Part shown: in pieces, positions 18,184 through 60,307 of the stretch | How positions within the stretch are numbered: the stretch's first letter is position 1 | How the letters are laid out: each line of letters starts with the position of its first letter | DNA from: a virus | Taxonomy: Duplodnaviria; Caudoviricetes | Length of the DNA stretch: 60,342 nt | Reading direction: 5' to 3' (one strand) | IMG/VR virus record: IMGVR_UViG_3300005613_000071 | Location: 1 to 60,342 of that record | Position numbers and translations under genes: made by a program | Notes under the pieces: model-generated | What the model was told of the DNA's origin: nothing | The model's input: only the letters and a program-made list of their open reading frames with translations | Databases searched by the model: none

Positions 18184-18623
18184 TTCTTGGACTTTTCTAT
18201 GGTCCTACCAGCGAAGTAGGCACCAAATGATGTTAGCATAAGTATCTCCAGCAAAGATACATAACTTTCTTTGACGTTAAATGGCAGATAATCAAGTGAA
18301 TCCAGGACCATAGTCACCATAAACATGCTCATCAAAGCAATCAAAGTTACAGGGCGTATGTACTTAGCGAGCTTGATGTCGCTGTTCATGTCCGCCTTCC
18401 ATCTCTCAGTAACGTTGTTCTGGAATGCAATCTCTGCGTCAATCTTTGCCTTGACTTCTTCTGGACTCAAGTCAGGGTATTGCTTGTCAATAAGGTTCTT
18501 TACAACACCCAGCGCACCCTGATCTGGCAAGAGATCCCCCACTGTATCCAATACGTTAGGGGCCTTCTCTTTAAGCCACTTGCCAAGGCTGGTATCTTTA
18601 ATCTTCTTGCTTTCCTGACTCAT
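18180..18623 (-). CDS. Putative holin
   Basis: RWKADM...IRP, two TM helices, GAYFAGRTIEK C-terminus typical of a phage holin family. Confidence 0.7.
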   Translation of the reverse strand: MSQESKKIKDTSLGKWLKEKAPNVLDTVGDLLPDQGALGVVKNLIDKQYPDLSPEEVKAKIDAEIAFQNNVTERWKADMNSDIKLAKYIRPVTLIALMSMFMVTMVLDSLDYLPFNVKESYVSLLEILMLTSFGAYFAGRTIEKSKK

Positions 18624-21600
18624 AGATTTCTTGCATGATGTCGAGGATTGCTACGGTGTGGTTTCTGAAACCTCTCCCGTCAAACTCCTTGACTGAGTTG
18701 TACTTATCATTAATCTCATCGAGAGCCTCAACCTTTTCGTCATCGTTCATCATCTCATACTGAACGCTGTTCATCAGGTTCTCGACGTCTTGATATCTTT
18801 CTTTACCAGCCACAGCCATGAGGCTGTTCATCTGCTCCGTGTTGAAGTAAACCCCGCTCTGCACGAACTTCTCATCATTAAGGAAGGTGTAGTTCTTGCC
18901 GAGCATACGGAGAGCCATCAGTTCTTTTTTGCTTGTCACGTCTGGAACGCTCACCTTGCGCTTCTTGGCAAAGGATGGGGTTGATACCACTTTAGAAACT
19001 GTTTCGGTAGATTCGAACAGCCTGTAGATTTCCTGAGATACTGGGTCATCCTCGCCTTGTCTAAGCTTGGTCACATCAAACAACTGATACATCCATCCAA
19101 CATTGCCTCGTGGGTTCTGCTTGATAGGGTTGCCCTTCCAGTCTACACGAACAGGGATGTCTGCACCTCCAAACGTCCGATCTTTGATCGTGTATTCTAG
19201 GTTAGCCATAAGTCTCTCTGCGCGGTCCATGTCCTTGGTGATGCGTCTGTCTGGCAGGAACTCTCTCTGAGCTCTGTAGATAGCGCTAAACTGGTTTGGA
19301 AGTATGACTGACATACCTACGTTTGCGATGCTGTTCAAGAGGTTATCAGAGGATCTCTCTACCTCCCCGCCAGCGAGGATCTGCAAGAAGTCATTGAGCC
19401 CCTGCAAGAAGCTCTGCTCCATCATGGATCCAGCGGCAGTCAAAGGGCCTATGCTTACCATGTCTGAGAACATGTGTTTAGCAAAGTCAATAGCTCCATC
19501 GTACTCACGTTCCCTCACTTCTTCTTTGTCATACCCTACTGCAACAGCGGCCATCAACGCTCCAGGAAGCCCGAGCTTCATGTAGTTGACGAACACGTCA
19601 TCATCTTGCTTCGACGCATCCTCTCCAGAAAGCATGCGCTTAAGGGCTGAGATGTTTATACTAGTAGGGGGGAACTGGTCGTAAGCAAGGTTCTTCTCTT
19701 CGTCCTCATCCCACTGCACTGGACCAGACAGGATACCCTCAGACAACAGCATCACCGCTGTCTCTGTTACCACGGCTCCGATCATAGCCTTGGCCACGTG
19801 TCTCGAAGCCTCGTCAAGATTGCCCTTCTTCATTTCGCTTGAGGCTCTGGCCGCAGCTACAATAGGTGACGCAAACGTAGCGCTCTCGATAAGGATGTTA
19901 GCTGGCGTGCTACGGAACGGAATCATAAACCTAAGCAAGGCCTTTGCTGTTTGCTCACCGTTGATGTATGGCAACATGTCCAGGGCTTCACCCATCTTGC
20001 GCTCCACAAAGCCTATGCTTTCGTTTACACCCTTAGAGAATGCAGTCTCCTCTTGGAATGTGATTCTACGCCCAGCGCCTCTAGCCTTCTCAGCATTCTT
20101 TCGTGGTGGGTGCTTTAGGAAATCGGCCAACGCCTCACCCTCAAGCCCCATCTCCATGGCCTGCTCGTACAGATTCTTATCTTCAAAATACTTTCTGAAC
20201 GGCGTGTCACCCAGAGACAACAGACGGAACATTACCTCTGCTGGAACTCCGAACGACCCCTGTACTGCCAACTTAAGTCGTTGGCTAGGTGGGATATCCT
20301 TTCCGCTGATAGCAGCCATCATAGATCTAAACGGCATGAGGCCTCTCGACTGTCGCCACTCCGTCGTGTCTTTGTCTTGGCCCGTGATGACTTGATCGAT
20401 GGTATCGACGAAGTTCTCGCCCATGTGACTCATGGCGTAGAAGTACGCGCCAAGAGATACACGCCTGTCGGCGTCATACTCTTTGCCAGCCAGCCTTGAC
20501 AATGACGACATGAAGGCTTTGACAGGAGCGGCGGTAATGTCGACTCCTACATCAAGGATAGAGTTTACCCCGTTGGCTTCGATGTTAGTAACTTGAGACA
20601 TGGTGGTCAACAGGTTTCCTTGAGCAATCTGACCAAGTAGCTCGCCCCATCCGCGCTCAATAACTACGTTGGTGAACGTATCCATCTCTCTTTCTACAGC
20701 CTTCAGGCGCTTGACGGCGTCTTCAAGTTCCTTTCCTACCTTCTCTCCACGTATGGCCCTTGTCTCAAGGTCTTCCACCTGAGCCTGGGCCTGGAACATC
20801 TGACCAGCCAAGTCATCGAGACGCTTGGCTTGCTCCTCAGTTAGCTTGTTTCCTTTGGCTTCTGCTGCCGCCGTGATGATAGACACCAATCCTTTTGGCG
20901 AGCTCCTCTTTACCTCTCTAAAATGGCGAAGCAATCGTCCAGCGGTAGTGCCCATAGATGACATCTCAGCAATAAGGTCTGGGATGATGTCTGCCTCTCC
21001 CCTAGCTACAGCTCTTGCAAGCCTCTCTGCTTGAGCGAGAACGCCGAGGTTGTCGTTCATAGTAGAGATTCTTCCAAGCTGTTCGTCATTGACGATGTCG
21101 ATAAGCTCTTGGTCAGTAAGGTCCTGGACATCTTTCTTTAAAGACTTAAGCTTCTGTGGAGTAATGTAGTTGCGAGGATCCTTAACGATCTTGGTTCTAA
21201 TGTCTGGATCAAAGCGTCCCTTCTGGCGACTAGCCGTCTGACGCATCTTCTTCTTCGTAGCTGTTGCAATCGATGCACGCTCTACTGCATCAGCCATGTT
21301 AGCCGCCACCTGAGACTCGCTGACCGCAACATCAGAAGGTACAACCATATTGTCGTATGCCGCCTCAAGAGCTTCGCGTGAATCAAACTCCATACCAAGC
21401 ACACCCTTGGCGTACCCCTCAAAGCGAGCGACAGCCTTGTCATACTTGGCCCCGCGAGTAGTTCTCTTGATTCTAGATTCTTCTGACTCGATTGTGCCTC
21501 TATCCAGGATTGGGTCTGACATATCGTAGTACTCAATCTTACCTCTCAGGTATACGTCGTTACCGATGATAGTAGCTTCTTCAGCCGACTTAACTGGACG

Positions 21601-24600
21601 TCCAGCCATATCAACAAACACGTTGTGGCTGAATGGGTTAAACTTAACTCTAACCCCGTCATAGTTGAGGTCAGTGCCTGAACCCACAAACTCACCATTG
21701 ACACTAGCCATCGGGAACTTGTTTTCTTGGAACGTAACAATCTTCTCTCTTGCGTTTTGATTTACATAAAGCTCTACGTTCTTAACCGTTACTGCTGGAG
21801 CGTATGTCAATGCTTCGCCGCTAGCAGTCTTGTCGTGCACGGTCTGCACTGGAACGCCAGTGTTCTTCATGACGTTGAGGTTGAGTCGGATACCTACCTT
21901 TTTCCCTGGCTCTATGTTGACTCCCTTAGCCAGGATGCGTCGTGAAGTAGCATCTGTTGACAACGCCTCATCGACTACAGTCTTGGATATCTTTACACTT
22001 GCACCCCTGACCTTAGTCATGGTGCCAACGTCTTTAGTTCTTGTTCTGAAGAGGCTGTTCTCTGCTGCATCTATGGTCTTGCCTTCGAGCTTGGTGTTAA
22101 GCTTTCTTCCTGGGGTAGGCATAACCTTCTCTGTAATTGGGTCTACGTTATCGAAAGACAAAGCCAGCTGATCACCAGGGACAGCATCCAACCCAACTGT
22201 GTTTGCGTCAGATCCGATAGACCGCTCCATCGCTGACTTGTAGTCGCTAATGAATGGCCTTCCTTGGTAGCTACTCATGGAGTACACGCCGTCGTGATAC
22301 ATGAGTTGCTGTACTTGGAATGGAGTCAACCCCATCTTTTTAGCAACCTTCTTCACAAACAGAGTAGACTCTGAATCATCATAGACGTCAAAATCTCTGA
22401 GCCTTTCAATCTGATTTCCAACCAGCTCTTTATAGATTCTAGCTGCGCCGTTTCTTACCTTGTCGTCACCCTTAGACTTGAGGTCTCTGATGGTGGCAAA
22501 CACCTCGGCATCAGAAGCCATTGCGTTCACGTCTGCTCCTAGCGCATTTAAGCGGGCAATAGCTGACGTTCTTACATCTTCTGATATGACTAGGCCCTCG
22601 GAGTAATCAACTTGATTAAACCTGCCTCTAAATACGTTGAACTGATCACGGAAGTGTCCGTCTTTAGGGATGGCATTCTTATCTCCAGTGTTTCCAAGGT
22701 ACAGATCTGCAAGCTTAGTTGTGTTTGCTCCGATCATAGACGCCAAGGCTGGGATGTTGCGAGAATCTCTCTTCTTGGCGGACTTGATGAATTGCTCCTC
22801 GTTCAACTTGCCGTCGATGTAGTACTGCTTGAAGATCTCGTTAATGTCAGACAAGTGTTTAGCCATGGTGTTAGCTCTGTCGCCTCGAACCATGCCGAGG
22901 GTACCGTCTTGTTCTCTCTTTGAGATGGCTTCAATCCTTCCTGGGGAGATGAACTCAGTAGCTCCGCTCTGCACGCGCTTGAGCCCAGCCTTAAATAGCT
23001 GCAAGCTTAGGTTTAAGTTTGGATCGATCTGAGACCCATTGGACGTGTATGACACGAGAAGGTCGTACATCATTTTAAAATCCATTGGATTGACCTCTAT
23101 TGATTCGTCAGCCGCAATAGACTTCATGACCTCGGACCTGCCCTCCTCGTAGTTACCTACTGCATCAGCCACGTCGGTGTTATGATCGTGAATCAAGTGT
23201 TGACGCAAGATGTCTAGTGACTGAGCAGCAATATCCACGCTCTGTTCGAGTGTTGGGTTATCGCCAATCTGCTGCTTAACCAAGCTGCTCTCCATTTGAA
23301 GCAACGATGACTTGTCATTAATCGAGCACGTTCCAGCACCAACCGCGCACAAGGCTCTGGCCTTGTCTCGAAGCTGTGCTTGGTATCTAGTAGACACCTC
23401 TGGGTCTGATACTATCCTGTCCGTAAAGGCGTACGCGGCTCTCTCAGTCACCCCGTCAGAGTCGTCGACGCCGAACTCTTCGTTGGCTTGCTGATATGCT
23501 TCTTGCACTTCCTCAAGGGTGGCGTAATCGTGGATGATGTCGTAAGCAAAGTCCTCCTTGGTGTAGTACTTGTCAACCTTTTGTTGTTCAATCTCATAGA
23601 TCGCATCCACCCTGTCTTGATCCATGGTCTTTACGATACGTTCAAGAGCAGAGATGTAATCCTTACCCATGTATGGCGGCTCACCCTTTGTCTTGCGTCG
23701 CTCTATATTGAGAAGCTTCGTAAACTTAGGCAGGATGTCTCTTTTGATCGAGTCTTTTTCTTTGGCTACGCGCGCTTTATCTTCTTTATATACTGGGGGC
23801 CGAAGCTTCCAGCTCTTCATGACGTCAGCATTGACAGGCTCTGTACTCCCGTCTGGCTTAACTAGCTCAAATTGTCCATACCTAACACTGCCCTTGCCCT
23901 TGCCCATGTCAGTGGCGTACTTCCACCAGTTAATGAAGTCCCACTTGCCGTTGAAAGTCTTCTCTTCTACGAATGAATTAGACGGACCGCCAAACCTATC
24001 ATAGAGCCCTCTTACATACTTGATTTTAAATGATCCACTCTCAGGAAGTTTGGACGGAGACAGAGCTGCTCTCTCAGTCGTGGTTTCTGCTGCTGTCTCT
24101 GACACAACAAAAGCCTCGCCAGTTTTAAGAGATCGCTGCAACTTCTGAAGAATAGGCTTAGCCTGCGAGATGTCCTCGATAAGCATAGCGTCCCGTCCAA
24201 GGGTGGCCTTCATGAACTTGTTGATGGCTACTCTGATGCGGTCAAGAAGATTCGGATCGGAGTAATCGTAGTTAAGGAGTTCTGTAAAGTATTCTACGAT
24301 CTGCTCTTCTGTAACCTCTTGCTCTTTTGCGTTGCGAACTTTACGATACAAGTCGCCCTTCTGCTCCACAATAGAGACGAGCTCTTCCTTGCCTGAGTTC
24401 CGAGCTATACCTTCGAGTTCATCGATCAGTCCGTACACCACCTTGGGGTTGTTCTTGTACGCCTTTCTCAGGGCTGGGCCTATGGTAGTGTGGAGCACCT
24501 CCTCTACAATAACTGCTCGTGGGTCCTTGCCACTCTTTCTAGATTCAGCTAGCCGCTTAGCATTCAGGTGTATTTCAATGCTCCCGTCTGGATTGTTTAC

Positions 24601-27525
24601 TGCAAGAGCGTTCGTTGGGGCGACCACATTAGATGATCTATCGCCAGACTCCTGAGTGTTGTGAACCACCACCTTGAAGTTCGAGCCAGCAGCAGCCTTA
24701 AGCGCTGGAGCAAGCATCTTGTTGATGACCCTAATGTCCTTTTTCGTGAGACCAGGGATAGACGTAATAGCTAGGCTGCCATCACTCTTGGCTTGAAACT
24801 CATCGAACTCTCCGTCAATACCACGGGAAGCAACTTTTTCTTGAGGCTGTTCTCTTACCTCTTCTTTGGTCGGCTCAACCTTAGGCTCGACAGGCTTAAC
24901 GAGATTTCGGATATCAGCAACCCTCTCGGCCTCTGGCTTCAGGTCTCCCTCAGCAGTGCCCGTTCCACCCGTGTCGATCTCCTCCATATTCTTGAGATCC
25001 CAAACAGCCTTCTGGTTGTACTGCTTACCAAGCTCAATGCCTACCTCTTTATCTACTGTGGCGGCTACGTCAATGTATGTCTTATTGTCGTTTGCATCGA
25101 ACCAAGTTCCTACTGAGATCACATCCTCGTTGCCTTCGAACAAGTCGTTGTTATCCTTCACGAATGCTTCGAGATCTTCTGCTGAGATGTCACCCTCGAC
25201 AATCTTGCTTCTCTCTGGGAAGATGCTTACGCTAGTCTTTTCTTGTCCAGCCTGATTTATTCCGTCGAGAGTAAACGTAGACCCCTTAGCTTCTTGGTCT
25301 GCATTGTGGTTTTCAAGCTGAGCTGCAGCTGAGTATTGCTGCGTAACTTCTGGAGCCTTCTCTTCAATGTTTGGGTTTATAGCCTTAAGCCCCAAGTGGT
25401 TGCGAAGGTCCTGCTCTGCAATGTACGCTTCTTCTGCAGCCTTTGTGAGCTCCTCGGTCATACCAGCCTGCGTTTGTGAAGCGCCTCGCTCGTCGCGCAA
25501 TACGCTTCTCTTCTCGCCGAGAACTCCGAGCAGTCTCAATGCTTCCTTCCTGTGGTCATTAGCTTTGTTGAGCCTGTCTGACAAGTCAGATATCACACGA
25601 GGATCGGTATCAACCCCCACTGCTCCGCTCATAGCTTCGTCAAGGGATTCTTTAAGAACAGCAACTTCGCCTCTAATGTTGTCCATCCTGTGGGCAACGC
25701 GAGAGTCCTCGTACTTTCTGCGCTCTTCTATATTCAGGTCAGTGCTCTCACCAGAGTGAGAGTTAATAATGCGCATGCGCTGGTCAACCAACGTGAAGAT
25801 GTTGCCAGTCAGCGCCTCAAGCTCTACGTCACTAACTCCTTGCTTCTGAGCATTCTTGTATCTGATAGTGGCTTGCTCAATAGCGATGTCAATATTATTG
25901 ATTCTCTCCATCTCTTTTGGATGGCGGAGTGTCATCATCCTATAGAACGTTTCCTTGGTAGCTTTCTCTTGCTGAAGCTGTTGGTCAAAGTTCTTTGAGA
26001 GTAGAGGGTCCACAGACTGTGACTTGTTCAAGGACTCAACGTTCTGCTGATCCTTGGACGTCATGCCGCTTTTCTCTACGCGAGAGTTGACGGCTGCCTG
26101 TGGTCTGCGAACAGCGTCGGCTCCCGCATCGAGTGCACGACGCGCACCTCCTGGGGCAGCGATAGTGCCTGAAGAGGCAATACCCATGACGGTAGCCTCA
26201 AGCCACCTGTCGAAGTAGTCGTCACCAGTGTAGTCTACGTTACCACCGATGTCCTCAGACAGCATGCGTGACGCCTCTTGCAATCCCTCAACACCACCCT
26301 CCGACAAAGCCTCAAGGCCTTGGTGTCTAAGGTATGTTCTAAGAGCTTCTGTAGCAGTCTCCTTCCTGAGGGGGTTGCTGATCATGTTCTTGAATGACCT
26401 CTTCAGGATGCTAGATTGAATAGATCCACCGCCAGCTGTAAGGGCGCCGTCCGCCACAGACATAAAGATTCTAGCAGCCTCTCCTTTAGCCGTGTCATCG
26501 AAGACAGGCTCTAATCCCTGCTGAATCCTGTTAAGATCTTCTCTCTCTGAGTCTTGGTAAGTGTTAGATGCAGCCACCGTGCCGCCGACAGCAATGCCTA
26601 CTGGCCCGAGAGCTGCCGCCGCAATGTACGGGGCACTGCCAGACACGGCTCTAGTGGATCTAGTAACGAGTTCAGCAACATCTCCAATGCTGTTAATATC
26701 CGTGGCTCTTTCCACAAAGCCTGTAGTGTACTGAGTTGTATAATCCGTTCTGGCTTTTTCTGTGAAGTCAGAAAGCTCCTGGTCTATAGATCTTTTGTAT
26801 GACTCTCTTACTTCGGCAGACATATATCCAGGCATAGCTGCGGCAGCAGAAGACATTGGGCCAGACAAGAAGTCAATCGTAGACATGCCCAGCTCAACAG
26901 CGTTGTCTCTAAAGAAGTCCCAAACACCACCACCAAAGCCAGTAGTCTCATTGTATCTGTCGTCACCATCCAGCGGGATAGCCAGCCCAAACTGGGAGTA
27001 GAGTCTGTTCGCGTAATCTTCTTTGTCTACGTCAGCCTCGCCGATTCTATTGTTGATCTCGTCGCTGTATCGAGAAAGCAGATCCTTTTGCTTATCTGAA
27101 GCCTTCTTATTGATGGCCTGCTGAATCTCGAAGCTCTTTTGCTCATCGGTCTTGTCCGTAGATCGGATGTCACTGACCATGGAGTTAAACTCTTCGTCAT
27201 CAAAAACGCTAGCATGAAGTTCTGCTTGGTCTGCAGCGAAGCGCTCGGCATACTCTCTACCGATACCGCTTACACTAAGATCTTGTGCGGGCGGAGAAGA
27301 AGCCAATTCTTCTTCCGAAGGCACTGAAGCTATAAGCGGTGTAGTTGTCGCCTCTGGTGATTCTAAATCTTTTTTTTTTGACTCATCAATCAGACCACTC
27401 GCATAATTCAATATGCCATCGTAGTCTATAGACTCGTCTTCAAAGTACAGTTCGTTGGCAATCCATGATGGGTTTTTACCTGCTGTGATGTACTCTTGTA
27501 TTCTTGCTTGAAGCTGTTCGTTCAT
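18598..27525 (-). CDS. Giant (2975 aa) multidomain virion cargo/ejection (polyvalent) protein
   Basis: Last gene of the virion operon; Gly/Ala-rich membrane-like segments; several embedded enzyme-like domains. Confidence 0.8.
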   Translation of the reverse strand: MNEQLQARIQEYITAGKNPSWIANELYFEDESIDYDGILNYASGLIDESKKKDLESPEATTTPLIASVPSEEELASSPPAQDLSVSGIGREYAERFAADQAELHASVFDDEEFNSMVSDIRSTDKTDEQKSFEIQQAINKKASDKQKDLLSRYSDEINNRIGEADVDKEDYANRLYSQFGLAIPLDGDDRYNETTGFGGGVWDFFRDNAVELGMSTIDFLSGPMSSAAAAMPGYMSAEVRESYKRSIDQELSDFTEKARTDYTTQYTTGFVERATDINSIGDVAELVTRSTRAVSGSAPYIAAAALGPVGIAVGGTVAASNTYQDSEREDLNRIQQGLEPVFDDTAKGEAARIFMSVADGALTAGGGSIQSSILKRSFKNMISNPLRKETATEALRTYLRHQGLEALSEGGVEGLQEASRMLSEDIGGNVDYTGDDYFDRWLEATVMGIASSGTIAAPGGARRALDAGADAVRRPQAAVNSRVEKSGMTSKDQQNVESLNKSQSVDPLLSKNFDQQLQQEKATKETFYRMMTLRHPKEMERINNIDIAIEQATIRYKNAQKQGVSDVELEALTGNIFTLVDQRMRIINSHSGESTDLNIEERRKYEDSRVAHRMDNIRGEVAVLKESLDEAMSGAVGVDTDPRVISDLSDRLNKANDHRKEALRLLGVLGEKRSVLRDERGASQTQAGMTEELTKAAEEAYIAEQDLRNHLGLKAINPNIEEKAPEVTQQYSAAAQLENHNADQEAKGSTFTLDGINQAGQEKTSVSIFPERSKIVEGDISAEDLEAFVKDNNDLFEGNEDVISVGTWFDANDNKTYIDVAATVDKEVGIELGKQYNQKAVWDLKNMEEIDTGGTGTAEGDLKPEAERVADIRNLVKPVEPKVEPTKEEVREQPQEKVASRGIDGEFDEFQAKSDGSLAITSIPGLTKKDIRVINKMLAPALKAAAGSNFKVVVHNTQESGDRSSNVVAPTNALAVNNPDGSIEIHLNAKRLAESRKSGKDPRAVIVEEVLHTTIGPALRKAYKNNPKVVYGLIDELEGIARNSGKEELVSIVEQKGDLYRKVRNAKEQEVTEEQIVEYFTELLNYDYSDPNLLDRIRVAINKFMKATLGRDAMLIEDISQAKPILQKLQRSLKTGEAFVVSETAAETTTERAALSPSKLPESGSFKIKYVRGLYDRFGGPSNSFVEEKTFNGKWDFINWWKYATDMGKGKGSVRYGQFELVKPDGSTEPVNADVMKSWKLRPPVYKEDKARVAKEKDSIKRDILPKFTKLLNIERRKTKGEPPYMGKDYISALERIVKTMDQDRVDAIYEIEQQKVDKYYTKEDFAYDIIHDYATLEEVQEAYQQANEEFGVDDSDGVTERAAYAFTDRIVSDPEVSTRYQAQLRDKARALCAVGAGTCSINDKSSLLQMESSLVKQQIGDNPTLEQSVDIAAQSLDILRQHLIHDHNTDVADAVGNYEEGRSEVMKSIAADESIEVNPMDFKMMYDLLVSYTSNGSQIDPNLNLSLQLFKAGLKRVQSGATEFISPGRIEAISKREQDGTLGMVRGDRANTMAKHLSDINEIFKQYYIDGKLNEEQFIKSAKKRDSRNIPALASMIGANTTKLADLYLGNTGDKNAIPKDGHFRDQFNVFRGRFNQVDYSEGLVISEDVRTSAIARLNALGADVNAMASDAEVFATIRDLKSKGDDKVRNGAARIYKELVGNQIERLRDFDVYDDSESTLFVKKVAKKMGLTPFQVQQLMYHDGVYSMSSYQGRPFISDYKSAMERSIGSDANTVGLDAVPGDQLALSFDNVDPITEKVMPTPGRKLNTKLEGKTIDAAENSLFRTRTKDVGTMTKVRGASVKISKTVVDEALSTDATSRRILAKGVNIEPGKKVGIRLNLNVMKNTGVPVQTVHDKTASGEALTYAPAVTVKNVELYVNQNAREKIVTFQENKFPMASVNGEFVGSGTDLNYDGVRVKFNPFSHNVFVDMAGRPVKSAEEATIIGNDVYLRGKIEYYDMSDPILDRGTIESEESRIKRTTRGAKYDKAVARFEGYAKGVLGMEFDSREALEAAYDNMVVPSDVAVSESQVAANMADAVERASIATATKKKMRQTASRQKGRFDPDIRTKIVKDPRNYITPQKLKSLKKDVQDLTDQELIDIVNDEQLGRISTMNDNLGVLAQAERLARAVARGEADIIPDLIAEMSSMGTTAGRLLRHFREVKRSSPKGLVSIITAAAEAKGNKLTEEQAKRLDDLAGQMFQAQAQVEDLETRAIRGEKVGKELEDAVKRLKAVEREMDTFTNVVIERGWGELLGQIAQGNLLTTMSQVTNIEANGVNSILDVGVDITAAPVKAFMSSLSRLAGKEYDADRRVSLGAYFYAMSHMGENFVDTIDQVITGQDKDTTEWRQSRGLMPFRSMMAAISGKDIPPSQRLKLAVQGSFGVPAEVMFRLLSLGDTPFRKYFEDKNLYEQAMEMGLEGEALADFLKHPPRKNAEKARGAGRRITFQEETAFSKGVNESIGFVERKMGEALDMLPYINGEQTAKALLRFMIPFRSTPANILIESATFASPIVAAARASSEMKKGNLDEASRHVAKAMIGAVVTETAVMLLSEGILSGPVQWDEDEEKNLAYDQFPPTSINISALKRMLSGEDASKQDDDVFVNYMKLGLPGALMAAVAVGYDKEEVREREYDGAIDFAKHMFSDMVSIGPLTAAGSMMEQSFLQGLNDFLQILAGGEVERSSDNLLNSIANVGMSVILPNQFSAIYRAQREFLPDRRITKDMDRAERLMANLEYTIKDRTFGGADIPVRVDWKGNPIKQNPRGNVGWMYQLFDVTKLRQGEDDPVSQEIYRLFESTETVSKVVSTPSFAKKRKVSVPDVTSKKELMALRMLGKNYTFLNDEKFVQSGVYFNTEQMNSLMAVAGKERYQDVENLMNSVQYEMMNDDEKVEALDEINDKYNSVKEFDGRGFRNHTVAILDIMQEIYESGKQED

Positions 27526-44809: not shown

Positions 44810-45183
44810 CAGGCTCCTATATCGTCGTTTACTTTAAACGTACCGTACAGGAGAGTCTTTACAGATCCAGCAGTAAACCTGACCCCATTTGTATCAGTGA
44901 CTTGCAAGTCATATACGTACAGTCCTGGAGAGAGGGCACCGACCTCATTAGCGGCGGACGTTATAGCCAACTTAGAGTTGGAAGCCTCTCCACTGGAGCT
45001 GACATAACTTATAGTCAGGGTCTCAGGTGTTGCAGTATCGGAGGTAGCTACCTTCATCTCAAATGTTCCACTCACCCCATGCTCAGGCATCGCAACACCA
45101 AACTCCAAGTTGAGCTCAAATGTATCACCCCTCTTACAGACGATGTCCAAACGATTTGATATATCTACGCTTACTGTAGCCAT
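44809..45183 (-). CDS. Tail-fibre attachment/adaptor-like protein
   Basis: RGDTF...YVYDLQ...LLYGTFKV motif of small Ig-like tail proteins. Confidence 0.6.
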
Positions 45184-51313: not shown

Positions 51314-51802
51314 ATGAATCATTGCACTTACTGCGGAGCGGAAAGCAAAAACCCAAGGTTCTGCTCCAGGTCTTGCTCGGCCAGCTATACAAACAAGGCT
51401 TCACCGAAAAGAAAGTTAAAAAGAAAATGCAAGAAGTGCGATGAAGTAGTAAGAAACTATAGGTCTACACTTTGCCAGCTACACTGGGATGAACACACGG
51501 AGTGGAACAAAGAGAATAGAAGGTCAAAGACGATAGGCGAAGTCGTGGAAAAAAGATCTAATCTACATCGCAGCTCAGCATATGCTGATATAAGAAACTT
51601 TGCGCGACACGATCACAAAGAAATGCTGAAGAATCCATGCTACAACTGTGGATATGATAAGCATGTTGAACTGTGTCATATAAAAGCCATAAGCGAGTTC
51701 ACGTTAGAAGCAACAATCAACGAGGTTAACGCTGCCTCTAACGTGATTCAACTCTGCCCTAACTGCCATTGGGAATTTGACAACGGCGTGTTAGAATTGT
51801 AG
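51314..51802 (+). CDS. HNH homing endonuclease with N-terminal zinc fingers
   Basis: CTYC, FCSRSC, CKKC; CYNCGY...ELCHIK...N...NVIQLCPNCH; antisense to the surrounding operon. Confidence 0.85.
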   Translation: MNHCTYCGAESKNPRFCSRSCSASYTNKASPKRKLKRKCKKCDEVVRNYRSTLCQLHWDEHTEWNKENRRSKTIGEVVEKRSNLHRSSAYADIRNFARHDHKEMLKNPCYNCGYDKHVELCHIKAISEFTLEATINEVNAASNVIQLCPNCHWEFDNGVLEL

Positions 51803-51873
51803 ACGGGGTGGGACTCCAACCCACATATGCCAATTTAGAAGATTGGTGCATTATGCTGTTATGCTACCCGTCC
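51800..51873 (-). tRNA. tRNA-Arg (anticodon TCT), divergent
   Basis: Acceptor GGACGGG/CCCGTCT; D-stem GCAT/ATGC; anticodon arm CCAAT-CTTCTAA-ATTGG; T-arm GTGGG-TTGGAGT-CCCAC; no encoded CCA. Confidence 0.75.
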
Positions 51874-54604: not shown

Positions 54605-54618
54605 GTTTGCAAATATAA

Positions 54619-55209
54619 TCACTTAGAGTCAACCTCCTCAAACAGAATCTTTTGAATGTAACCCTGAGTCTCTTTAGGTAGGTACTCTAGCCACTCCCTA
54701 GGGTCGCCATAGATATCTACGCCCTCAGCCTTAGCTCTCTCCAAAGCCTTCAAGACTGTTCCCTCCCCTGCATTATAGCTGCCGTATATACGAGCTAGCC
54801 TGTTGACTTCAGGGATGGGCTTAGGTGGCGACTTCACAAAAGAAAGACCAGAGATAGCTTCTATCTTGGCGTCACGCATGATGCGGCTATCAAGAGGGTC
54901 GAAAGGATCTAACCCCTTAGAGATAAAACCCCTATCCTCTAAATCCTTCTGCGTAGCTGGCATGATCTGCCAACGCCCACGAGCGCCAGCTGGAGAGACA
55001 GCGCGGTCAGGGTCTCTCTCCCCGCCAGTCTCCGCCATCATCTGACGCAAGATGCGGTCGCTAGAATTGGTTACATAGCTGAGAGTGTCGCTGCCATGAA
55101 CAGAAGACTCAGGGTCATCAACATAGAACACCTCCCCGCCAGGACCCTCAACCTTAACCTGCTTCACAGGCTTGATGGGATCACCGTTGCTTAATCGTAT
55201 TGATTTCAT
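54619..55209 (-). CDS. Lytic transglycosylase (SLT domain)
   Basis: AETGG...AVSPAGARGRWQIMPAT...SYNAGEG...LPKETQGY. Confidence 0.85.
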   Translation of the reverse strand: MKSIRLSNGDPIKPVKQVKVEGPGGEVFYVDDPESSVHGSDTLSYVTNSSDRILRQMMAETGGERDPDRAVSPAGARGRWQIMPATQKDLEDRGFISKGLDPFDPLDSRIMRDAKIEAISGLSFVKSPPKPIPEVNRLARIYGSYNAGEGTVLKALERAKAEGVDIYGDPREWLEYLPKETQGYIQKILFEEVDSK

Positions 55210-55388: not shown

Positions 55389-55878
55389 TAGAGTATTGCT
55401 TTAAGTAATAAGCGTAACTCACTGCTATAGAACAGCTTATATGATACATGCATAGGAAAAAGAAGCAGTGATCGAGAGTGGACTCGCCTAAGAAAAGAAG
55501 TGAGAAATAAAGATTGTGGGGATAATACGTACCTATAGACGTCACACCCCCGCACCCGAAACGCATTACGTACCCCCGTGGGTACAACACGCTACACGTT
55601 TGGCGCATACATTTCAGCTTTTCGTAACAGGCTGGTGGCGAGCAGGTTAGAGCACGGCAGTTGGAGTAGCGGTACAGGTTGGAGTTTGTAGCGTCTATCT
55701 TCGATAGAGGACAATCCCCTCTCCCCTTCCCCACGAATCTGCGATTCACGTCGCATATGACGCCACACTGCAATGCGCTGTCCAGGTCATGACCCGTTGT
55801 CCAGCCTCATGTATGTACGCGGTCTGATGGGCCTTTTTACCCCCCTTAGGGGGTAACTTTTTTATCAGCAAAAAAAGA

Positions 55879-55911
55879 TTTGGAATTTGGCGGAAGTCGG
55901 TTATACCTTTG
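55879..55911 (+). promoter_or_regulatory. Early rightward Bacteroidota promoter (-33 TTTG, -7 TACCTTTG)
   Basis: TTTG 55879-55882, 21-nt spacer, TACCTTTG 55904-55911; A-tract upstream. Confidence 0.75.
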
Positions 55912-55963
55912 CAGAGCCATCGGCAATCGGTTGGTGGCATTCAAACTTCAAACTTCATCTCCG

Positions 55964-56527
55964 ATGAACAACAATCAATCTCGTATCAACCTCCTCAAGG
56001 AGGTTAAGTCAGCAGTCAACACTGCTTCGTTCGCTCCAACCTCAGACCGCATCGAAGATGCGAAGAAGGCGGTTCAGGAACTCATGTCATACGTCGAATC
56101 CCTCGAAGAGGGACTGAAGCCAAAGCGTCGTCGTAAGACGAAGCAGAAGTCTTCCAAGGCTACCCCAGCTACCAAGGTAGCAGACCGCCAAGAGAAGGCT
56201 TTCCATGGCCGTCCTGACACTCCTGTCACACCATCCACACGGAAGCCGAAGGCTTCGGTCGAGGCGGCTCGGAAAGCGGCTCACGACGTGTCACGTCACA
56301 CAGGGGCTGAAAGCCGAGCCAAGCGGAAAGCCGAGGCAGTCAAGGAGGCTGTCGTCATGCCGAAGGCCGCACCTATGAAGGTGACATCACATGATGAGGC
56401 TCGATTGGCCGACCTCGAAGCTAAGATTGAGGCTCTGATTGCCTTGCAATCCATGGGGCATGACGTTACACGTTCTGCTGAAGTACTCTTCAGCGACCTC
56501 CCCTTCGACCCTACTTCAAACCTCTAA
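55964..56527 (+). CDS. First early protein; Lys/Ala-rich with DLPF near the C-terminus
   Basis: ATG 55964 after promoter and TCAAACTTCAAA leader. Confidence 0.7.
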   Translation: MNNNQSRINLLKEVKSAVNTASFAPTSDRIEDAKKAVQELMSYVESLEEGLKPKRRRKTKQKSSKATPATKVADRQEKAFHGRPDTPVTPSTRKPKASVEAARKAAHDVSRHTGAESRAKRKAEAVKEAVVMPKAAPMKVTSHDEARLADLEAKIEALIALQSMGHDVTRSAEVLFSDLPFDPTSNL

Positions 56528-56537
56528 TTCATTGAAA

Positions 56538-56696
56538 ATGAACATCTGGCAACAACACATCAACGCCAACTACCGCAGGATGGTAGCTGAACTCAACGAT
56601 ATGGCTCGTTTCGAAGGAAACGACAAGGCTCTTGCGACGCTTGATGCCATCCTCGACTGCCTGAATGCTCAAAGAGCACAACTCGAACAACAATAA
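56538..56696 (+). CDS. Small early protein (52 aa)
   Basis: MNIWQQHINANY...; in-frame ATG just after upstream stop. Confidence 0.6.
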   Translation: MNIWQQHINANYRRMVAELNDMARFEGNDKALATLDAILDCLNAQRAQLEQQ

Positions 56697-56701
56697 CCCT
56701 T

Positions 56702-56760
56702 GAGTGGGGGAGTATATACACCTTCTGAGTTTACGAAGAAGGTGATATACGACCCCTCTC
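56702..56760 (+). repeat. GA-mismatch hairpin element, copy 1
   Basis: GGGG-GA-GTATAT-A-CACCTTCT-GAGTTTACGA-AGAAGGTG-ATATAC-GA-CCCC. Confidence 0.85.
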
Positions 56761-56796
56761 TCTAACTCGAAATTCAAACTTCAAAATTCAATCATC

Positions 56797-57000
56797 ATGT
56801 CAAACGTTTCAGACATCATCGACTCCGTCATCGCTTCAGGTTACATGACAAGTGTAGACGTATACAAGACGTTCGAGGACTCCGAAGCCGAACGGAAGTA
56901 CATCCTCAAGTATCACTTGGACGAAGAACTTGAGCAGTTCTTGATGTGCAAGGCAATGGAGGATGCTCTCACCCCCAAGCCTGACAAGCCCCCATACTGA
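56797..57000 (+). CDS. Small early protein
   Basis: 67-aa ORF after TCAAACTTCAAA leader. Confidence 0.65.
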   Translation: MSNVSDIIDSVIASGYMTSVDVYKTFEDSEAERKYILKYHLDEELEQFLMCKAMEDALTPKPDKPPY

Positions 57001-57007
57001 CATCACA

Positions 57008-57060
57008 GGTACACTGATGAGCCTTGATTAGGCGAAACACCCCCTTGGGGTGTCTGTATC
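57008..57060 (+). ncRNA. Type I hammerhead ribozyme 1
   Basis: GGTACA-CTGATGA-GCCT(TGATT)AGGC-GAAA-CACCCC(CTT)GGGGTG-TC-TGTATC; complete core; predicted cleavage after C57054. Confidence 0.9.
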
Positions 57061-57080
57061 AAACTTCAAATCTGTTCACC

Positions 57081-57209
57081 ATGAACCCTTCCAAACTCCA
57101 AGCCATCCTCGACATGTTCGAAACCTTCGGTGCTGACGTGATGTGTAACACCTCTGACTGGTGTGACCTGACCTGCGAAGAGCAGATGATTGTCGAGGCC
57201 AACCTGTAA
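57081..57209 (+). CDS. Small early protein (42 aa) bracketed by the two hammerheads
   Basis: MNPSKLQAILDMF...; stop abuts ribozyme 2. Confidence 0.6.
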   Translation: MNPSKLQAILDMFETFGADVMCNTSDWCDLTCEEQMIVEANL

Positions 57210-57261
57210 GGTACACTGACGAGTCCTCAATGGACGAAACACCCTTCGGGGTGTCTGTATC
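57210..57261 (+). ncRNA. Type I hammerhead ribozyme 2
   Basis: GGTACA-CTGACGA-GTCC(TCAAT)GGAC-GAAA-CACCC(TTCG)GGGTG-TC-TGTATC; predicted cleavage after C57255. Confidence 0.9.
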
Positions 57262-57280
57262 AAACTTCAATTCATCAGAG

Positions 57281-57463
57281 ATGAACACATATCATTACAT
57301 CATCTACTACCAGCGTGACCGCGACGATTGGCGCGATGGTCATATCACGGCTAACAGCCTCGAAGAGGCCTTGAGCAAGTGTCACTACAACTTCCGTCAC
57401 ACTCCGTGGACCTTGAAGAAGGTGGAGTTGGTAAAAGATAACTCGTTGATTGTCAACGCATAA
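57281..57463 (+). CDS. Small early protein (60 aa)
   Basis: MNTYHYIIYY...ITANSLEEAL. Confidence 0.65.
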   Translation: MNTYHYIIYYQRDRDDWRDGHITANSLEEALSKCHYNFRHTPWTLKKVELVKDNSLIVNA

Positions 57464-57474
57464 CATCACATTAC

Positions 57475-57549
57475 ATGAACAAAAACTTGAACCTCGCTTT
57501 CCTTGCGTGGATGTCACTCCTTGCGTTGGTGGCCTTCCTCCAACACTAA
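57475..57549 (+). CDS. 24-aa hydrophobic peptide MNKNLNLAFLAWMSLLALVAFLQH
   Basis: Read manually; single TM-like helix filling the intergenic gap. Confidence 0.45.
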   Translation: MNKNLNLAFLAWMSLLALVAFLQH

Positions 57550-57553
57550 AATA

Positions 57554-57611
57554 GAGAGGTGAGTATATATACCTTCTGAGTTTACGAAGAAGGTAATATA
57601 CGAACCCTCTC
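57554..57611 (+). repeat. GA-mismatch hairpin element, copy 2
   Basis: Same core with compensatory TACCTTCT/AGAAGGTA; outer stem GAGAGG/CCTCTC. Confidence 0.85.
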
Positions 57612-57637
57612 AAATGTCAAACTTCAAACTTCAAATC

Positions 57638-57862
57638 ATGAAAAACTTCTTTTCTCAACCTGTTGGCCGTGCGGTTCTGTTCCTCAACGGCTTCCACTTC
57701 GGAAAGCGACTCAACGACCTGAATCGGTGTGCTCGGCTTGTTCCGAAGGACGTGAAGGGCTTTGCCTCCCTCCTCACAATGATGCCTGACGCTGACGCTG
57801 AACACGTTGGCGCAATCATCGACGAGTTGGTGTTCCTCGCTGACCAAATCGAGGGGGTATGA
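57638..57862 (+). CDS. Small early protein
   Basis: MKNFFSQ... after TCAAACTTCAAACTTCAAA leader. Confidence 0.65.
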   Translation: MKNFFSQPVGRAVLFLNGFHFGKRLNDLNRCARLVPKDVKGFASLLTMMPDADAEHVGAIIDELVFLADQIEGV

Positions 57863-58056
57863 CACAAGATAAATGCGAACGTGCAGTCCAAGCACTGCAA
57901 AACCACGGCTTCAAGGCCTCTCACGTAATGGGTGGACCTGACGACCACGGGGTGTGGTTGGATGCCGTATGGACAGACAAGCTCGGAGATGCGTGTAGCT
58001 TCCGCATCCACGACGAAGAAATCGAATGGTGGCAAACCCAAAACGAACCAGCATGA
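57859..58056 (+). CDS. Small early protein
   Basis: ATGA-coupled 65-aa ORF. Confidence 0.65.
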   Translation: MTQDKCERAVQALQNHGFKASHVMGGPDDHGVWLDAVWTDKLGDACSFRIHDEEIEWWQTQNEPA

Positions 58057-58199
58057 CACAAGCAGAACGACTCGACAACCGCACGAAGAACTGCGGTAGC
58101 TTTGAACTTGCGCTCATCAGGGCGTGGTTCAAGGCCGATAGCAACAACAAGAAGATTCTCGAAAACGCCTTCAAGGGCACAATGTTTGACCTCACATGA
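58053..58199 (+). CDS. Small early protein (48 aa, GSF...L..AWFKADSNN..IL..AF)
   Basis: Read manually; ATGA overlaps at both ends. Confidence 0.6.
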   Translation: MTQAERLDNRTKNCGSFELALIRAWFKADSNNKKILENAFKGTMFDLT

Positions 58200-58378
58200 A
58201 AAATTACCATAAGTGCCACAAGTGTGGCGGCCAAGGAATCTTCCTCGAATCACAAGAAGTGGGGTGCACCACAAACGGATACATCCAGATAGAGCACGAC
58301 TACGAGTGCGAGGACTGCCGAGCCACATGGGAAGTAAACTTTGAATTAACACCAAAAGAAAGAGATAACCATGAATGA
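58196..58378 (+). CDS. Zinc-ribbon protein
   Basis: CHKCGG...CEDCRATW. Confidence 0.7.
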   Translation: MKNYHKCHKCGGQGIFLESQEVGCTTNGYIQIEHDYECEDCRATWEVNFELTPKERDNHE

Positions 58379-58514
58379 CATCATCGAAGTAATCATCGAA
58401 CTCTCCCGTATGCAGGGGCAGGCAATCGATCGGGCACAGGCAGAGGCCATCAACACTGCCGTAGAGAAAGGCTACGACAAGTGGCAAAACGAATCAAAGG
58501 ATTTGGTTGATTGA
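58371..58514 (+). CDS. Small early protein (47 aa, MNDIIEVII...)
   Basis: Read manually; overlaps upstream ORF end. Confidence 0.5.
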   Translation: MNDIIEVIIELSRMQGQAIDRAQAEAINTAVEKGYDKWQNESKDLVD

Positions 58515-58526
58515 AGTTTGACCATC

Positions 58527-58608
58527 GAGGGGGCAGAGCAAATAACTCATGTCGGGTAAATACCATAGCTCTTACGGCTGAAACGTCAGTCCGCCCCCTC
58601 ACTTTTTT
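58527..58608 (+). ncRNA. Multi-stem structured element followed by T6 tract
   Basis: Closing stem GAGGGGGC/GCCCCCTC; inner stems AGAGC/GCTCT, GGTA/TACC, GGCTGA/TCAGTC. Confidence 0.5.
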
Positions 58609-58609
58609 C

Positions 58610-58690
58610 AAGGGAGCGCAGTCGGTGCGTACATCAAGGTGTTACACGACACCAAGGATGGCAGTTGTGTTCGAATCCCAACCTCCCTTC
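58610..58690 (+). ncRNA. tRNA-like element
   Basis: Acceptor-like AAGGGAG/CTCCCTT; CGCA/TGCG; GGTGT/ACACC; T-loop TTCGAAT in GTTGTG/CCCAAC. Confidence 0.6.
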
Positions 58691-58693
58691 TAT

Positions 58694-58748
58694 GTGTGAG
58701 TGTATATACACCTTCTGAGTTTACGAAGAAGGTGATATACACGAACAC
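58694..58748 (+). repeat. GA-mismatch hairpin element, copy 3
   Basis: GTGT-GA-GTGTATAT-A-CACCTTCT-GAGTTTACGA-AGAAGGTG-ATATACAC-GA-ACAC. Confidence 0.85.
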
Positions 58749-58782
58749 TTCAAATCATTTTCAAACTTCAAATCAATTCAGC

Positions 58783-59370
58783 ATGAAACAATATGCAGTA
58801 ATCCACGCTGTCGCAGGACTCTTCGAAGGGTACTCCGACACCACTTGCGAGTTCTTCCCCAAGCGGGGATTCGCAGAGAAGCACATCAACCAAATCCTGT
58901 CTGACTACGCAAACGATGATATGTGTGTGGACGTCAGCGGAGGGTTTGACGATGGCATTTACGCCACCATGACCCGTGACTACGAGGACTATGCGGCTTG
59001 CGTACCATCTGATATGTCGCATGACGATTGGGTTGCAGAGAATGGCGACGACGTTAGTGTCGAGGTGTTCCGCATCATCGAGGTTGATATGTCCAACCGC
59101 TCCGACTCCACCGAGTCATGTTGGTTGACGTGGGACCAACAGGATACTACCCAAGCATGGGACTACTTCCCCTTGTGTATGTCCTTGGTGGCTCGTGTCT
59201 CCTCTGATGTCATGGACAACGACCAATCGGTTCACGGCCTCGAACAACTGACGGACTTCATCTCCTCGGTATACTACGGCAGTCACGCTCTCATCGACAT
59301 CGACGACTATGTGATGCACGCTTTCCGTATCCCCAAACCAAAGAACAATGACGAAGAAACAACTGCTTGA
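58783..59370 (+). CDS. Acidic early hypothetical protein
   Basis: MKQYAVIHAV... after TCAAACTTCAAA leader; C-terminus duplicated at window start. Confidence 0.75.
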   Translation: MKQYAVIHAVAGLFEGYSDTTCEFFPKRGFAEKHINQILSDYANDDMCVDVSGGFDDGIYATMTRDYEDYAACVPSDMSHDDWVAENGDDVSVEVFRIIEVDMSNRSDSTESCWLTWDQQDTTQAWDYFPLCMSLVARVSSDVMDNDQSVHGLEQLTDFISSVYYGSHALIDIDDYVMHAFRIPKPKNNDEETTA

Positions 59371-59575
59371 CCTCATCGCACAATACCCTGACGATGCAGA
59401 GGTGGTAATCGAGGTGCATGACACCACGCTACACGAAGACCTGTACGACTTCACGTTAGACCCCATCTCGTGGGCTCGATTTGACAACACCACAGACAAT
59501 CCAATGGATTCCTTTGACTACAAAACCATGCACGAGCTACGGCTCTGCCCAATCAAGAACACAATAATCGAATAA
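59348..59575 (+). CDS. Small early protein (homolog of 263..454)
   Basis: MTKKQLLD...HDTTLHEDLYDF. Confidence 0.7.
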   Translation: MTKKQLLDLIAQYPDDAEVVIEVHDTTLHEDLYDFTLDPISWARFDNTTDNPMDSFDYKTMHELRLCPIKNTIIE

Positions 59576-59576
59576 G

Positions 59577-59732
59577 ATGCACATCAATGACTTCATGGCC
59601 ATCTGTGAGCAAGCCACAATCGATCCCGTGCTCGCATCTGAAGACGATGGTGTCAAGACCATCCTCAAGACGCCAACATCAGACGACAACCAACGAGCAA
59701 TGCTCATCAACTACTTCAACAAAAATTTCTAA
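59577..59732 (+). CDS. Small early protein (51 aa, MHINDFMAICEQ...)
   Basis: Read manually; fills the gap exactly between neighbours. Confidence 0.6.
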   Translation: MHINDFMAICEQATIDPVLASEDDGVKTILKTPTSDDNQRAMLINYFNKNF

Positions 59733-59734
59733 TC

Positions 59735-60307
59735 ATGAACTCAGTACAAGAATCCAAGAACGAGCTCGAAGCGGCTATCCGCTACGCAGAGAACGCTATC
59801 TCATCTGCACAGGGTACTATCGAGTCGATGGAGTTCCGCCAAGAGATGGCGAAGAAGAACTACCAAGAGCAGACAGGACGTGAGCAAGCCCTCGAAGCTC
59901 AGGTTGAACAACTCAAGGCCGAGCTTGATAAGCTCCGCAAGGAGAAAGAATCATCAAGCGGACCATGCGGATGCCAAGCATACCGCGACCTCGAAGAGCG
60001 AGCTACTATGCCCGTCATCCCTCGTGACGTAGCCATCGCCATCTTCCGTGAGGGTGTGCAGTCAGGCGTCAATGATGCTGTTGCTGAACTCGAAGGGCAG
60101 ACCATCAACATCTGCGAGAACGAATACTGCGGTGACTTCGAGGTGACATTCGCACGAGACATTCACCTCGATGATGAGCTTGACCTCGACTGGATGCGCG
60201 GCAAGGTTGGGCAGTACGAAGAGTCCTTCGTGGTAGATGCACTCAAGGGATTGTGTGCAAGCAAGGAGTTCGAGTGCCGCATCCACGGAATCGACGACAA
60301 TGACTAA
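59735..60307 (+). CDS. Coiled-coil early protein (short allele of 1384..2100)
   Basis: Near-identical translation lacking ~43 internal residues. Confidence 0.8.
   Translation: MNSVQESKNELEAAIRYAENAISSAQGTIESMEFRQEMAKKNYQEQTGREQALEAQVEQLKAELDKLRKEKESSSGPCGCQAYRDLEERATMPVIPRDVAIAIFREGVQSGVNDAVAELEGQTINICENEYCGDFEVTFARDIHLDDELDLDWMRGKVGQYEESFVVDALKGLCASKEFECRIHGIDDND

Follow-up and report, generated by a model that had tools for sequence, protein, structure and literature searches.

We analyzed an IMG/VR virus record of 60,342 bp in its entirety (hereafter the window; estimated completeness 99%) and focused on two short RNA elements in a + strand block of small genes, at 57008..57060 and 57210..57261. 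On the evidence of their sequence, fold and homologues, both are genuine type I hammerheads with predicted cleavage sites. We propose, with a probability of roughly 0.7, that both are working ribozymes: cutting in cis, they would punctuate the polycistronic early transcript of a ~60-kb phage. Five direct observations enter this proposal: the core, the fold, the covariation, the placement of the elements and their modularity across the family. Cleavage in vivo would then give each cistron its own stability and translation.

Sequence, fold and covariation of the two hammerheads

Hammerhead 1 (HH1, 57008..57060, + strand) and hammerhead 2 (HH2, 57210..57261, + strand) are compact elements of 52-53 nt. 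HH1 consists of stem I (57008-57013 paired with 57055-57060), CUGAUGA, stem II (4 bp, 5-nt loop), GAAA, stem III (7 bp, loop CUU) and GUC. HH2 has the core CUGACGA, a stem II of GUCC/GGAC and a 6-bp stem III with the loop UUCG; in both, stem III is G+C-rich, with 6-7 bp and a loop of 3 or 4 nt. Stem I is the same in the two copies (GGUACA/UGUAUC, 6 bp including one G-U pair). Two of the four stem II pairs differ between HH1 (GCCU/AGGC) and HH2, and each time both sides have changed. In both copies stem I is open and stems II and III are capped by loops, which is the topology of a type I hammerhead. Direct likeness between HH1 and HH2 extends over a tract of 32 nt with 91% identity.

When the isolated elements were folded with RNAfold, the three-stem hammerhead was both the minimum-energy and the centroid fold of each copy, at -18.7 kcal/mol for HH1 (z -2.4) and -17.4 kcal/mol for HH2 (z -1.8). 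A first-pass annotation of this DNA had reported a full core (CUGANGA, GAAA, GUC) with three stems in both copies, and sequence and RNAfold confirm this; its description of an identical stem I, a stem II that differs yet still pairs, and unlike stem III loops (CUU and UUCG) is likewise correct. A hammerhead core cleaves itself 3' of GUC and leaves 2',3'-cyclic phosphate and 5'-OH ends. The predicted cuts lie between 57054 and 57055 (HH1) and between 57255 and 57256 (HH2).

The bare core pattern is insignificant by itself: the window holds 2 matches where 0.52 are expected, and two or more turned up in 14 of 100 shuffles. We therefore relied on comparison. A pattern scan of IMG/VR returned 37 loci in 36 records, from which 40 distinct hammerhead sequences were aligned. 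Perfect pairing of stem I was required during collection, so that the evidence from this stem is partly circular; stems II and III were unfiltered. All 600 stem cells of the alignment pair (100%), and 9 of the 15 pairs carry changes on both sides, where shuffled alignments average 4.2. On four of five measures the real alignment stayed out of reach of all 500 shuffles; on the fifth, a count of further pair types, 5 of them matched or passed it. Sliding the pairing partners along the alignment destroys the pairing.

We then built our own covariance model (R1) from these 40 sequences. With filters off, R1 scored HH1 at 74.9 bits and HH2 at 72.1 bits in the window, and the next match at 14.1 bits; the latter (56386-56439) lacks stem III, lies inside a gene and was rejected. 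In the related loci R1 gave 63 matches, 43 of them distinct, whose unfiltered, model-fitted alignment has 99.5% of its cells paired and both-side changes at 11 of 15 pairs. We regard this comparative covariation as decisive support for the hammerhead identity predicted from sequence. The alignment of 40 distinct homologues also supports the earlier proposal that the two copies covary.

The anatomy of the family is uniform among 45 distinct elements with flanks, 44 of which could be parsed. The positions C3 U4 G5 A6 N7 G8 A9, G12 A13 A14 and the A15.1-U16.1 pair are invariant in the 40 aligned sequences. All 44 parsed copies have C at position 17 of the hammerhead numbering, where any base other than G is accepted, and all have a stem I of exactly 6 bp, with a seventh pair possible in one. 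The base 5' of stem I is A in 43 of 44, and the four bases 3' of it are A-A-A-C in 42, 38, 40 and 36 copies, respectively. Loop II has 5 nt in 37 copies and follows the consensus U-N-A-N-U (U1 in 37, A3 in 35 and U5 in 35 of the 37). From the constantly short stem I, its conserved A caps and the conserved loop II we suggest that loop II makes a docking contact with the stem I end.

Members of the family occur in 36 related IMG/VR records and in 4 cultured phages of Flavobacterium or Cellulophaga, which scored 47.9 bits (elemoE), 46.8 bits (elemoB), 38.6 bits (phi18:3) and 37.0 bits (elemoF). Homologous copies are thus at hand in cultured phage-host pairs, namely Elemovirus with Flavobacterium sp. 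BAL314 and phi18:3 with Cellulophaga baltica #18. The copy of elemoE_6-9C lies on the minus strand of NC_055854.1, and that of phi18:3 on the minus strand of NC_021794.1 at 21904-21958. We note that in two related loci a decayed tandem copy (26.7 bits, no GUC) lies 1 nt past an intact hammerhead (L007 4266-4311 and L038 5621-5666). We also note that in NC_055854.1 the hammerhead at 16304-16361 is annotated only as a coding sequence, gp65 (16289-16396, 108 nt; locus L052 2790-2897), which runs against the strand of every gene around it; this is probably a mis-call. An unannotated 21-codon open reading frame (ORF) of the same record ends at a TAG that overlaps stem I.

Placement, leader and the proposed punctuation

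We next considered where the hammerheads lie, using 60 matches in 49 distinct contexts. In 34 of the 49 contexts the predicted cut falls 25-28 nt 5' of an ATG that begins a frame of at least 25 codons, and in 38 it falls 19-29 nt from such an ATG. Seven further contexts belong to a sister group with a different stem I, in which the distance from cut to ATG is 40-63 nt and a purine-rich tract precedes the ATG. The remaining four deviate; two of them lie before tRNA-like sequence, and another is in a locus that is cut off too soon to judge. On the other side, in 46 of 49 contexts an open frame of at least 30 codons ends close by: its stop, the nearest one upstream, lies between 10 nt inside the element and 20 nt before it. 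Given these fixed distances to stop and start, the hammerhead fills the intergenic gap almost exactly. The sister group (L005, L010, L022, L024, L026 and L027) has GCAAUA or GCAACA as stem I, and the Shine-Dalgarno-like character of its purine-rich leader tract hints at phages of a different host group.

The same geometry holds in the window, as the first-pass annotation had read it. It had placed each element within 8 nt of an upstream stop: the TGA at 56998-57000 is 7 nt before HH1, and the TAA at 57207-57209 abuts HH2. The cuts are 26 and 25 nt before the next ATGs (57081 and 57281), the intervening ORF has 42 codons, and 201 nt separate the cuts. Upstream of HH1 is a 67-codon gene (56797..57000, + strand), an ORF with a hammerhead behind its homologue in 9 related loci (tblastn). 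The 42-codon gene between the hammerheads (57081..57209, + strand) belongs to a family whose members have 42-53 residues and share the motif W..L(T/S)C.EQM; homologues aligned from 15 related loci (tblastn) make it a real, conserved gene, and its product matched no PHROG family. Downstream of HH2 lie a 60-codon gene (57281..57463, + strand), an ORF with tblastn homologues in relatives, and a 24-codon hydrophobic ORF (57475..57549, + strand), the last of the unit, which is 59-67% identical in 5 related loci and has neither leader motif nor hammerhead before it. It likely encodes a small membrane peptide belonging to the early block.

Each predicted cut would leave a short leader on the + strand. 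The HH1 leader (57055..57080, 26 nt) comprises the freed stem I strand, the 9-nt motif AAACUUCAA and then the start codon region, and the HH2 leader (57256..57280, 25 nt) carries the same 9-nt motif. The first ~65 nt of the predicted 3' products fold at -2.5 kcal/mol (HH1) and -5.4 kcal/mol (HH2), no better than shuffles. Across 26 sources, the 9-nt motif plus ATG occurs in 106 distinct contexts, of which 29 follow a hammerhead. Among the other 77, 55 are preceded at 20-105 nt by a hairpin of -24 kcal/mol or lower, compared with 19 of 600 random segments; a cut-off of -14 kcal/mol is uninformative, as 232 of 400 random segments pass it. Most of the remaining leader contexts follow a TTTG..TAnnTTTG promoter motif or a tRNA-like T-arm. 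Hence hammerhead, hairpin-plus-box, tRNA-like element and promoter share one slot ahead of the leader, and all make an RNA end. It is because the leader also follows hairpins, promoters and tRNA-like elements that we read the hammerheads as punctuation. Internal genes of the block that lack an end-making element overlap the preceding stop (57859, 58196 and 58371).

The hairpin-plus-box is represented in the window by three + strand copies of an element that we call D5. Copy 1 (56707..56760; -29.6 kcal/mol, z -5.7) opens the four-gene unit that contains both hammerheads, copy 2 (57558..57611; -26.3 kcal/mol, z -7.1) closes that unit and opens the next, and copy 3 lies at 58697..58750 (-28.2 kcal/mol, z -6.8). 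The copies are ~54 nt long and 81-93% alike, each with a hairpin of ~20 bp containing a small internal loop, then a conserved box, then the leader of the next gene. In relatives the box is kept and the stems differ with compensating changes. Candidate roles for D5 are those of a hairpin-type promoter, a terminator and an RNase III-like site. In a relative (G008; locus L009 7527-7724, - strand) we observed the order D5, 22 nt, hammerhead, 35 nt, and an odd tRNA-like gene. This gene scores 38.8 bits with the Rfam tRNA model, ARAGORN left its anticodon undetermined, and a similar sequence follows the hammerhead in locus L036; to judge from the sequence, the L009 ribozyme would cut off a leader just ahead of the tRNA-like RNA.

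We propose the following sequence of events. Transcription of the + strand would run rightwards from a host-type promoter at ~55.9 kb, from D5 at 56.7 kb, or from both. Each hammerhead would fold while it is transcribed and cut 3' of its GUC, yielding three RNAs: (i) RNA 1, which carries the 67-codon gene and has the hairpins of stems II and III and a 2',3'-cyclic phosphate at its 3' end; (ii) RNA 2, with the 42-codon gene between a 5'-OH and a 2',3'-cyclic phosphate; and (iii) RNA 3, with the 60- and 24-codon genes behind a 5'-OH start. Each cut would free the 3' strand of stem I and so give the downstream message an unstructured leader of 25-26 nt with the 9-nt motif. HH1 and HH2 would act independently, and the pair would not be a unit. 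A further step is tentative, and we consider it doubtful: that early messages work without a Shine-Dalgarno sequence, that the leader functions only near a free 5' end made in any of four interchangeable ways (host-type promoter, hairpin-plus-box, tRNA-like element or hammerhead), and that cleavage switches on downstream translation. If true, this would be a bacterial counterpart of the ribozyme-dependent translation of fungal RNA viruses, with the hammerhead as a 53-nt substitute for a promoter.

Two hammerheads around one gene also invite another interpretation. The first-pass annotation held that a double cut would free a 201-nt RNA (57055-57255) whose ends could be joined into a circle by an RtcB-type ligase. 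Such a ligase would come from the host; the reverse hammerhead reaction is another conceivable route, since the freed 5' strand can pair again with the 5' strand of HH2. The cut sites and the flanked ORF stand; the idea that the pair exists to excise and circularize this RNA is not supported, as the bracketing is not conserved. In its favour, the two window copies have the same stem I, so that a complete though nicked hammerhead could form again where the ends of the excised RNA meet. Those ends are of the kind that RtcB is established to join, and RtcB, a common enzyme in bacteria, is present in 10 of 14 control genomes, Bacteroides among them. A homologue of the 42-codon gene also lies between two hammerheads in L007, L025, L029 and probably L038, a locus that ends early. 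However, ten loci have a hammerhead on one side only of the homologue, upstream in four (L009, L019, L028 and L030) and downstream in six (L004, L006, L008, L011, L020 and L034). By a whole-record search, the 36 records hold one copy in 15 cases, two in 17, three in 3 and four in 1 (three of the additional copies score a weak 22.6-26.7 bits), and 3 of the 7 records that are at least 90% complete hold a single copy. The distance between successive copies varies from 201 to 1126 nt, with 239 nt also present in one record. Stem I would allow ring closure in the window and in 5 of 17 distinct successive pairs, and fails to do so in 12; the core-adjacent stem I pair would be broken in the three loci with hammerheads on both sides of the same gene (L007, L025 and L029). 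The phage encodes no RtcB, leaving a host enzyme as the possible ligase, and the ORF has its own stop and thus no endless frame. Clustered prophage hammerheads gave no circular or spliced product in the part of Perreault et al. (2011, PMC3088659) drawn on here. We consider circularization improbable, well below the proposed punctuation.

The RNA data speak neither for nor against cleavage or a circle. Six RNA runs contain small shares of the stretch, and the contigs of four were examined; these come from relatives and represent mainly D5 elements. The joint of 57255 to 57055 is absent from the contigs of the four runs, which hardly cover the site, derive from relatives and cannot show ends. 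One 448-nt RNA record crosses HH2 to 57274, which is 19 nt past the cut, where the threshold for bridging was 31.

The modularity of the family can also be viewed at the level of DNA. In the syntenic early module, mapped in 27 sources, the hammerhead stands before or after differing genes depending on the phage. The hammerhead with its leader could thus be a 70-80-bp boundary at which small early genes are swapped, its ribozyme activity being secondary or left over. Hammerheads mark the cassette borders of a mosaic module, HH2 has exactly the sequence of the L009 hammerhead and HH1 is nearer to the copies of other phages than to HH2, and two RNA-library contigs of relatives join D5 straight to the 42-codon homologue, skipping the 67-codon gene and HH1. 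A recombination site alone, however, would not keep the catalytic nucleotides and compensated stems in at least 40 copies; moreover, stems II and III and the loops vary freely, so that identical tracts are short, as in the 32 nt shared by the window copies. We therefore hold a purely DNA-level role to be unlikely, though somewhat less so than a circle.

Several observations weigh against reading the hammerheads as working punctuation. No hammerhead reaches the Rfam gathering score in the window, and the same is true of the hammerheads of 11 related loci. HH2 scores 22.8 bits with Hammerhead_1 (RF00163; gathering score 34), with E 0.0038 in 451 nt and 1.2e-4 over the genome. The RAGATH-1-hammerhead model (RF03152; gathering score 56.3) gives 23.9 bits for HH1, which no other model meets, and 19.8 bits. 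An Infernal check against Rfam, suggested by the first-pass annotation, thus gave a sub-threshold Hammerhead_1 match for HH2 and none at the gathering score; that score is a curated cut-off, not a structural feature. In its full context the HH1 hammerhead is not the minimum-energy fold, and its stem I is misfolded in a 96-nt piece. Stem I is short and has no internal loop, the docking of loop II is deduced from conservation alone, and without this contact the ribozyme might cut slowly at the Mg2+ levels of a cell. The scan met the UGA of the core first in 11 of the 46 stop contexts, and the real stop may lie a few nt upstream. The survey pattern demands a hammerhead, so relatives with zero copies are undercounted, and 3 of 7 named relatives that were searched hold none. 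The length of the primary transcript depends on whether D5 is a promoter, an RNase III site or a terminator, and the cleavage and RNA ends of the family are predictions.

The low Rfam scores might even be taken to mean that the elements are inactive relics or chance look-alikes, and decayed copies do occur in relatives: those of L007 and L038 lack GUC, and the elemoF copy has a damaged stem II with 2 mispairs. Relics would not be expected to retain an intact core in 44 of 44 parsed distinct copies, pairing in 99.5-100% of stem cells with compensatory changes, and a fixed placement with respect to stop and start codons. We judge this explanation the least probable of all, and very improbable. 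Punctuation in cis remains our preferred reading.

Host, promoters and comparison with known systems

The large terminase of the window phage is 39% identical to that of Elemovirus (Flavobacterium phages of ~60 kb) and 35% identical to Cellulophaga phage terminases, and it is distantly similar to the terminases of crAss-like phages. One virion protein has a crAss muzzle C-terminal domain, and the primase-helicase has a BT4734-like domain. TAnnTTTG motifs, which we take to be the Bacteroidota -7 promoter element, lie ahead of minus-strand genes; the full form TTTG...TAnnTTTG is presumably the Bacteroidota consensus. The window holds 5 matches to TTTG-N17-23-TAnnTTTG, compared with 0.9 expected, and none of 100 shuffles reached 5. 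One of them (TTTG, 21 nt, TAnnTTTG; 55879..55911, + strand) precedes the first gene of the + strand block, and pattern matching found further full copies on the minus strand at 54610-54642 and 45117-45151. Besides this promoter copy, the + strand has a single TAnnTTTG from 55.9 to 60.3 kb, located at 58097. These promoter-type motifs point to a Bacteroidota host and to promoters used by the host RNA polymerase. Together with the kinship of the terminase and the crAss-type domains, they indicate that the host is probably a marine member of the Flavobacteriia.

The + strand block is probably an early block read rightwards, where "early" is our inference. No integrase was seen among the scanned ORFs of the window phage, and blastn of 55800-58700 against a phage collection returned no match. 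A pattern scan of bacterial genomes gave 10 loci in unrelated bacteria, of which only two Saprospiraceae contigs matched the family model, and weakly (25.1 bits, many mispairs), and thus no clue to the host.

That hammerheads can cluster around single genes of phages was already known in 2011. Perreault et al. (2011, PMC3088659), in the part drawn on here, described such clusters in prophages, proposed that they process transcripts into single-gene mRNAs, and obtained all expected products in vitro from three clusters. The window family resembles these clusters in that several coding-strand hammerheads lie close together around small genes of inconstant identity. The clusters tested there came from prophages of Clostridium, Azorhizobium and Agrobacterium, whereas the window family sits in an early block of a phage with no integrase among its scanned ORFs. 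Compared with what that part describes, the window family is also set apart by being all type I, with a uniform 6-bp, A/A-capped stem I and 25-28 nt to the start codon; the alignments of PMC3088659 may or may not include sequences of this subfamily.

The same source, as far as consulted, describes HHphage of the haloviruses HF1 and HF2, which lies in an early region 13 nt before the first start codon of a polycistronic transcript and has a mapped 5' end within 3 nt of the cut (PMC3088659). HHphage differs in being from an archaeal virus, a structural variant that needs high Mg2+, present in single copy and at another distance from the start (PMC3088659). The 5' untranslated region of fungal RNA viruses offers a second parallel: according to the portion of Lopez-Galiano et al. 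(2026, PMC13725137) used here, hammerhead cleavage is needed there for translation. As in the window, a type I hammerhead stands just 5' of an ORF and cleavage creates the 5' end that is translated, but the fungal case concerns cap-independent translation in eukaryotes (PMC13725137). Retrozymes, viroid-like RNAs and Zetavirus-like segments likewise have two hammerheads of the same orientation that bound an RNA of a few hundred nt, with segments of 186-399 nt in RNA viruses in the text available from PMC13725137. To the extent that these sources describe them, such units are circular and replicating, or reside in eukaryotic genomes or RNA viruses; the window unit is a phage protein gene whose bracketing is not conserved.

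Hammerhead_1 and RAGATH-1 of Rfam share the core and the type I topology with our elements, and the stem I of RAGATH-1 is also short; its 5' hairpin is not convincingly present in the window. In T7, host RNase III cuts the early mRNA at hairpins, and RiboJ is a man-made ribozyme insulator. In both, as proposed here, a long transcript is cut between cistrons, and every downstream message acquires a defined 5' leader that is independent of the upstream RNA. Unlike T7 early mRNA, the window RNA would cut itself, and the D5 hairpins may be the enzyme-dependent counterpart; unlike RiboJ, the window ribozymes are natural.

The purpose of hammerheads at phage genes was still called open in a 2019 review, in the part drawn on here. 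A search of the literature on hammerheads in Flavobacterium phages, in crAss-like phages and in phage early genes found no paper on this family, as judged by titles and the openings of abstracts. New here are a uniform type I subfamily missed by Rfam, its fixed start-codon geometry, its equivalence with other punctuation elements and its presence in cultured phages. The family is an unusually clean case on account of its uniform architecture, its constant distance to the start codon, a slot common to other elements and the cultured pairs. Annotation based on Rfam misses the whole family, and in one RefSeq record a coding sequence of the opposite strand is annotated over the ribozyme.

Other features of the block and the record

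PHROGs gave no function for ten small proteins of the block, with two weak matches at E ~0.01. We note that the ORF listed at 57614-57862 (+ strand) has the leader motif inside its first codons and that relatives align from residue 8 or 9; from this alignment, the ATG at 57638 is more likely to be its true start. A conserved hairpin at the start codon (TTCATC/GATGAA arms) was considered and dropped, since among 21 scored ORF starts of the window it is complete only at 55964 and partial (4 of 6 pairs) at 57081; the start at 57281 went unscored, as the finder took the ATG at 57230.

Short TAnnTTTG motifs number 33 on the minus strand and 18 on the plus strand of the window and often lie directly 5' of genes. 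A 2975-residue ORF (18598-27525, - strand) has a single Pfam match, a mycobacteriophage L5 gp82-like domain at residues 1890-1992, and adjoins the 1494-residue protein that carries the crAss muzzle C-terminal domain. The two ends of the record (1-2100 and 59098-60302) are similar over ~1.2 to 2 kb, with 1-123 identical to 59098-59220 and the remainder at 89-90%. This looks like imperfect terminal redundancy, or like a two-strain assembly across a terminal repeat; two relatives (G008 and G017) were assigned to the class with direct terminal repeats. Lastly, a tRNA-Arg gene (anticodon tct) lies at 51799-51873 (- strand), and the same tRNA occurs in the relatives L025 and L032.

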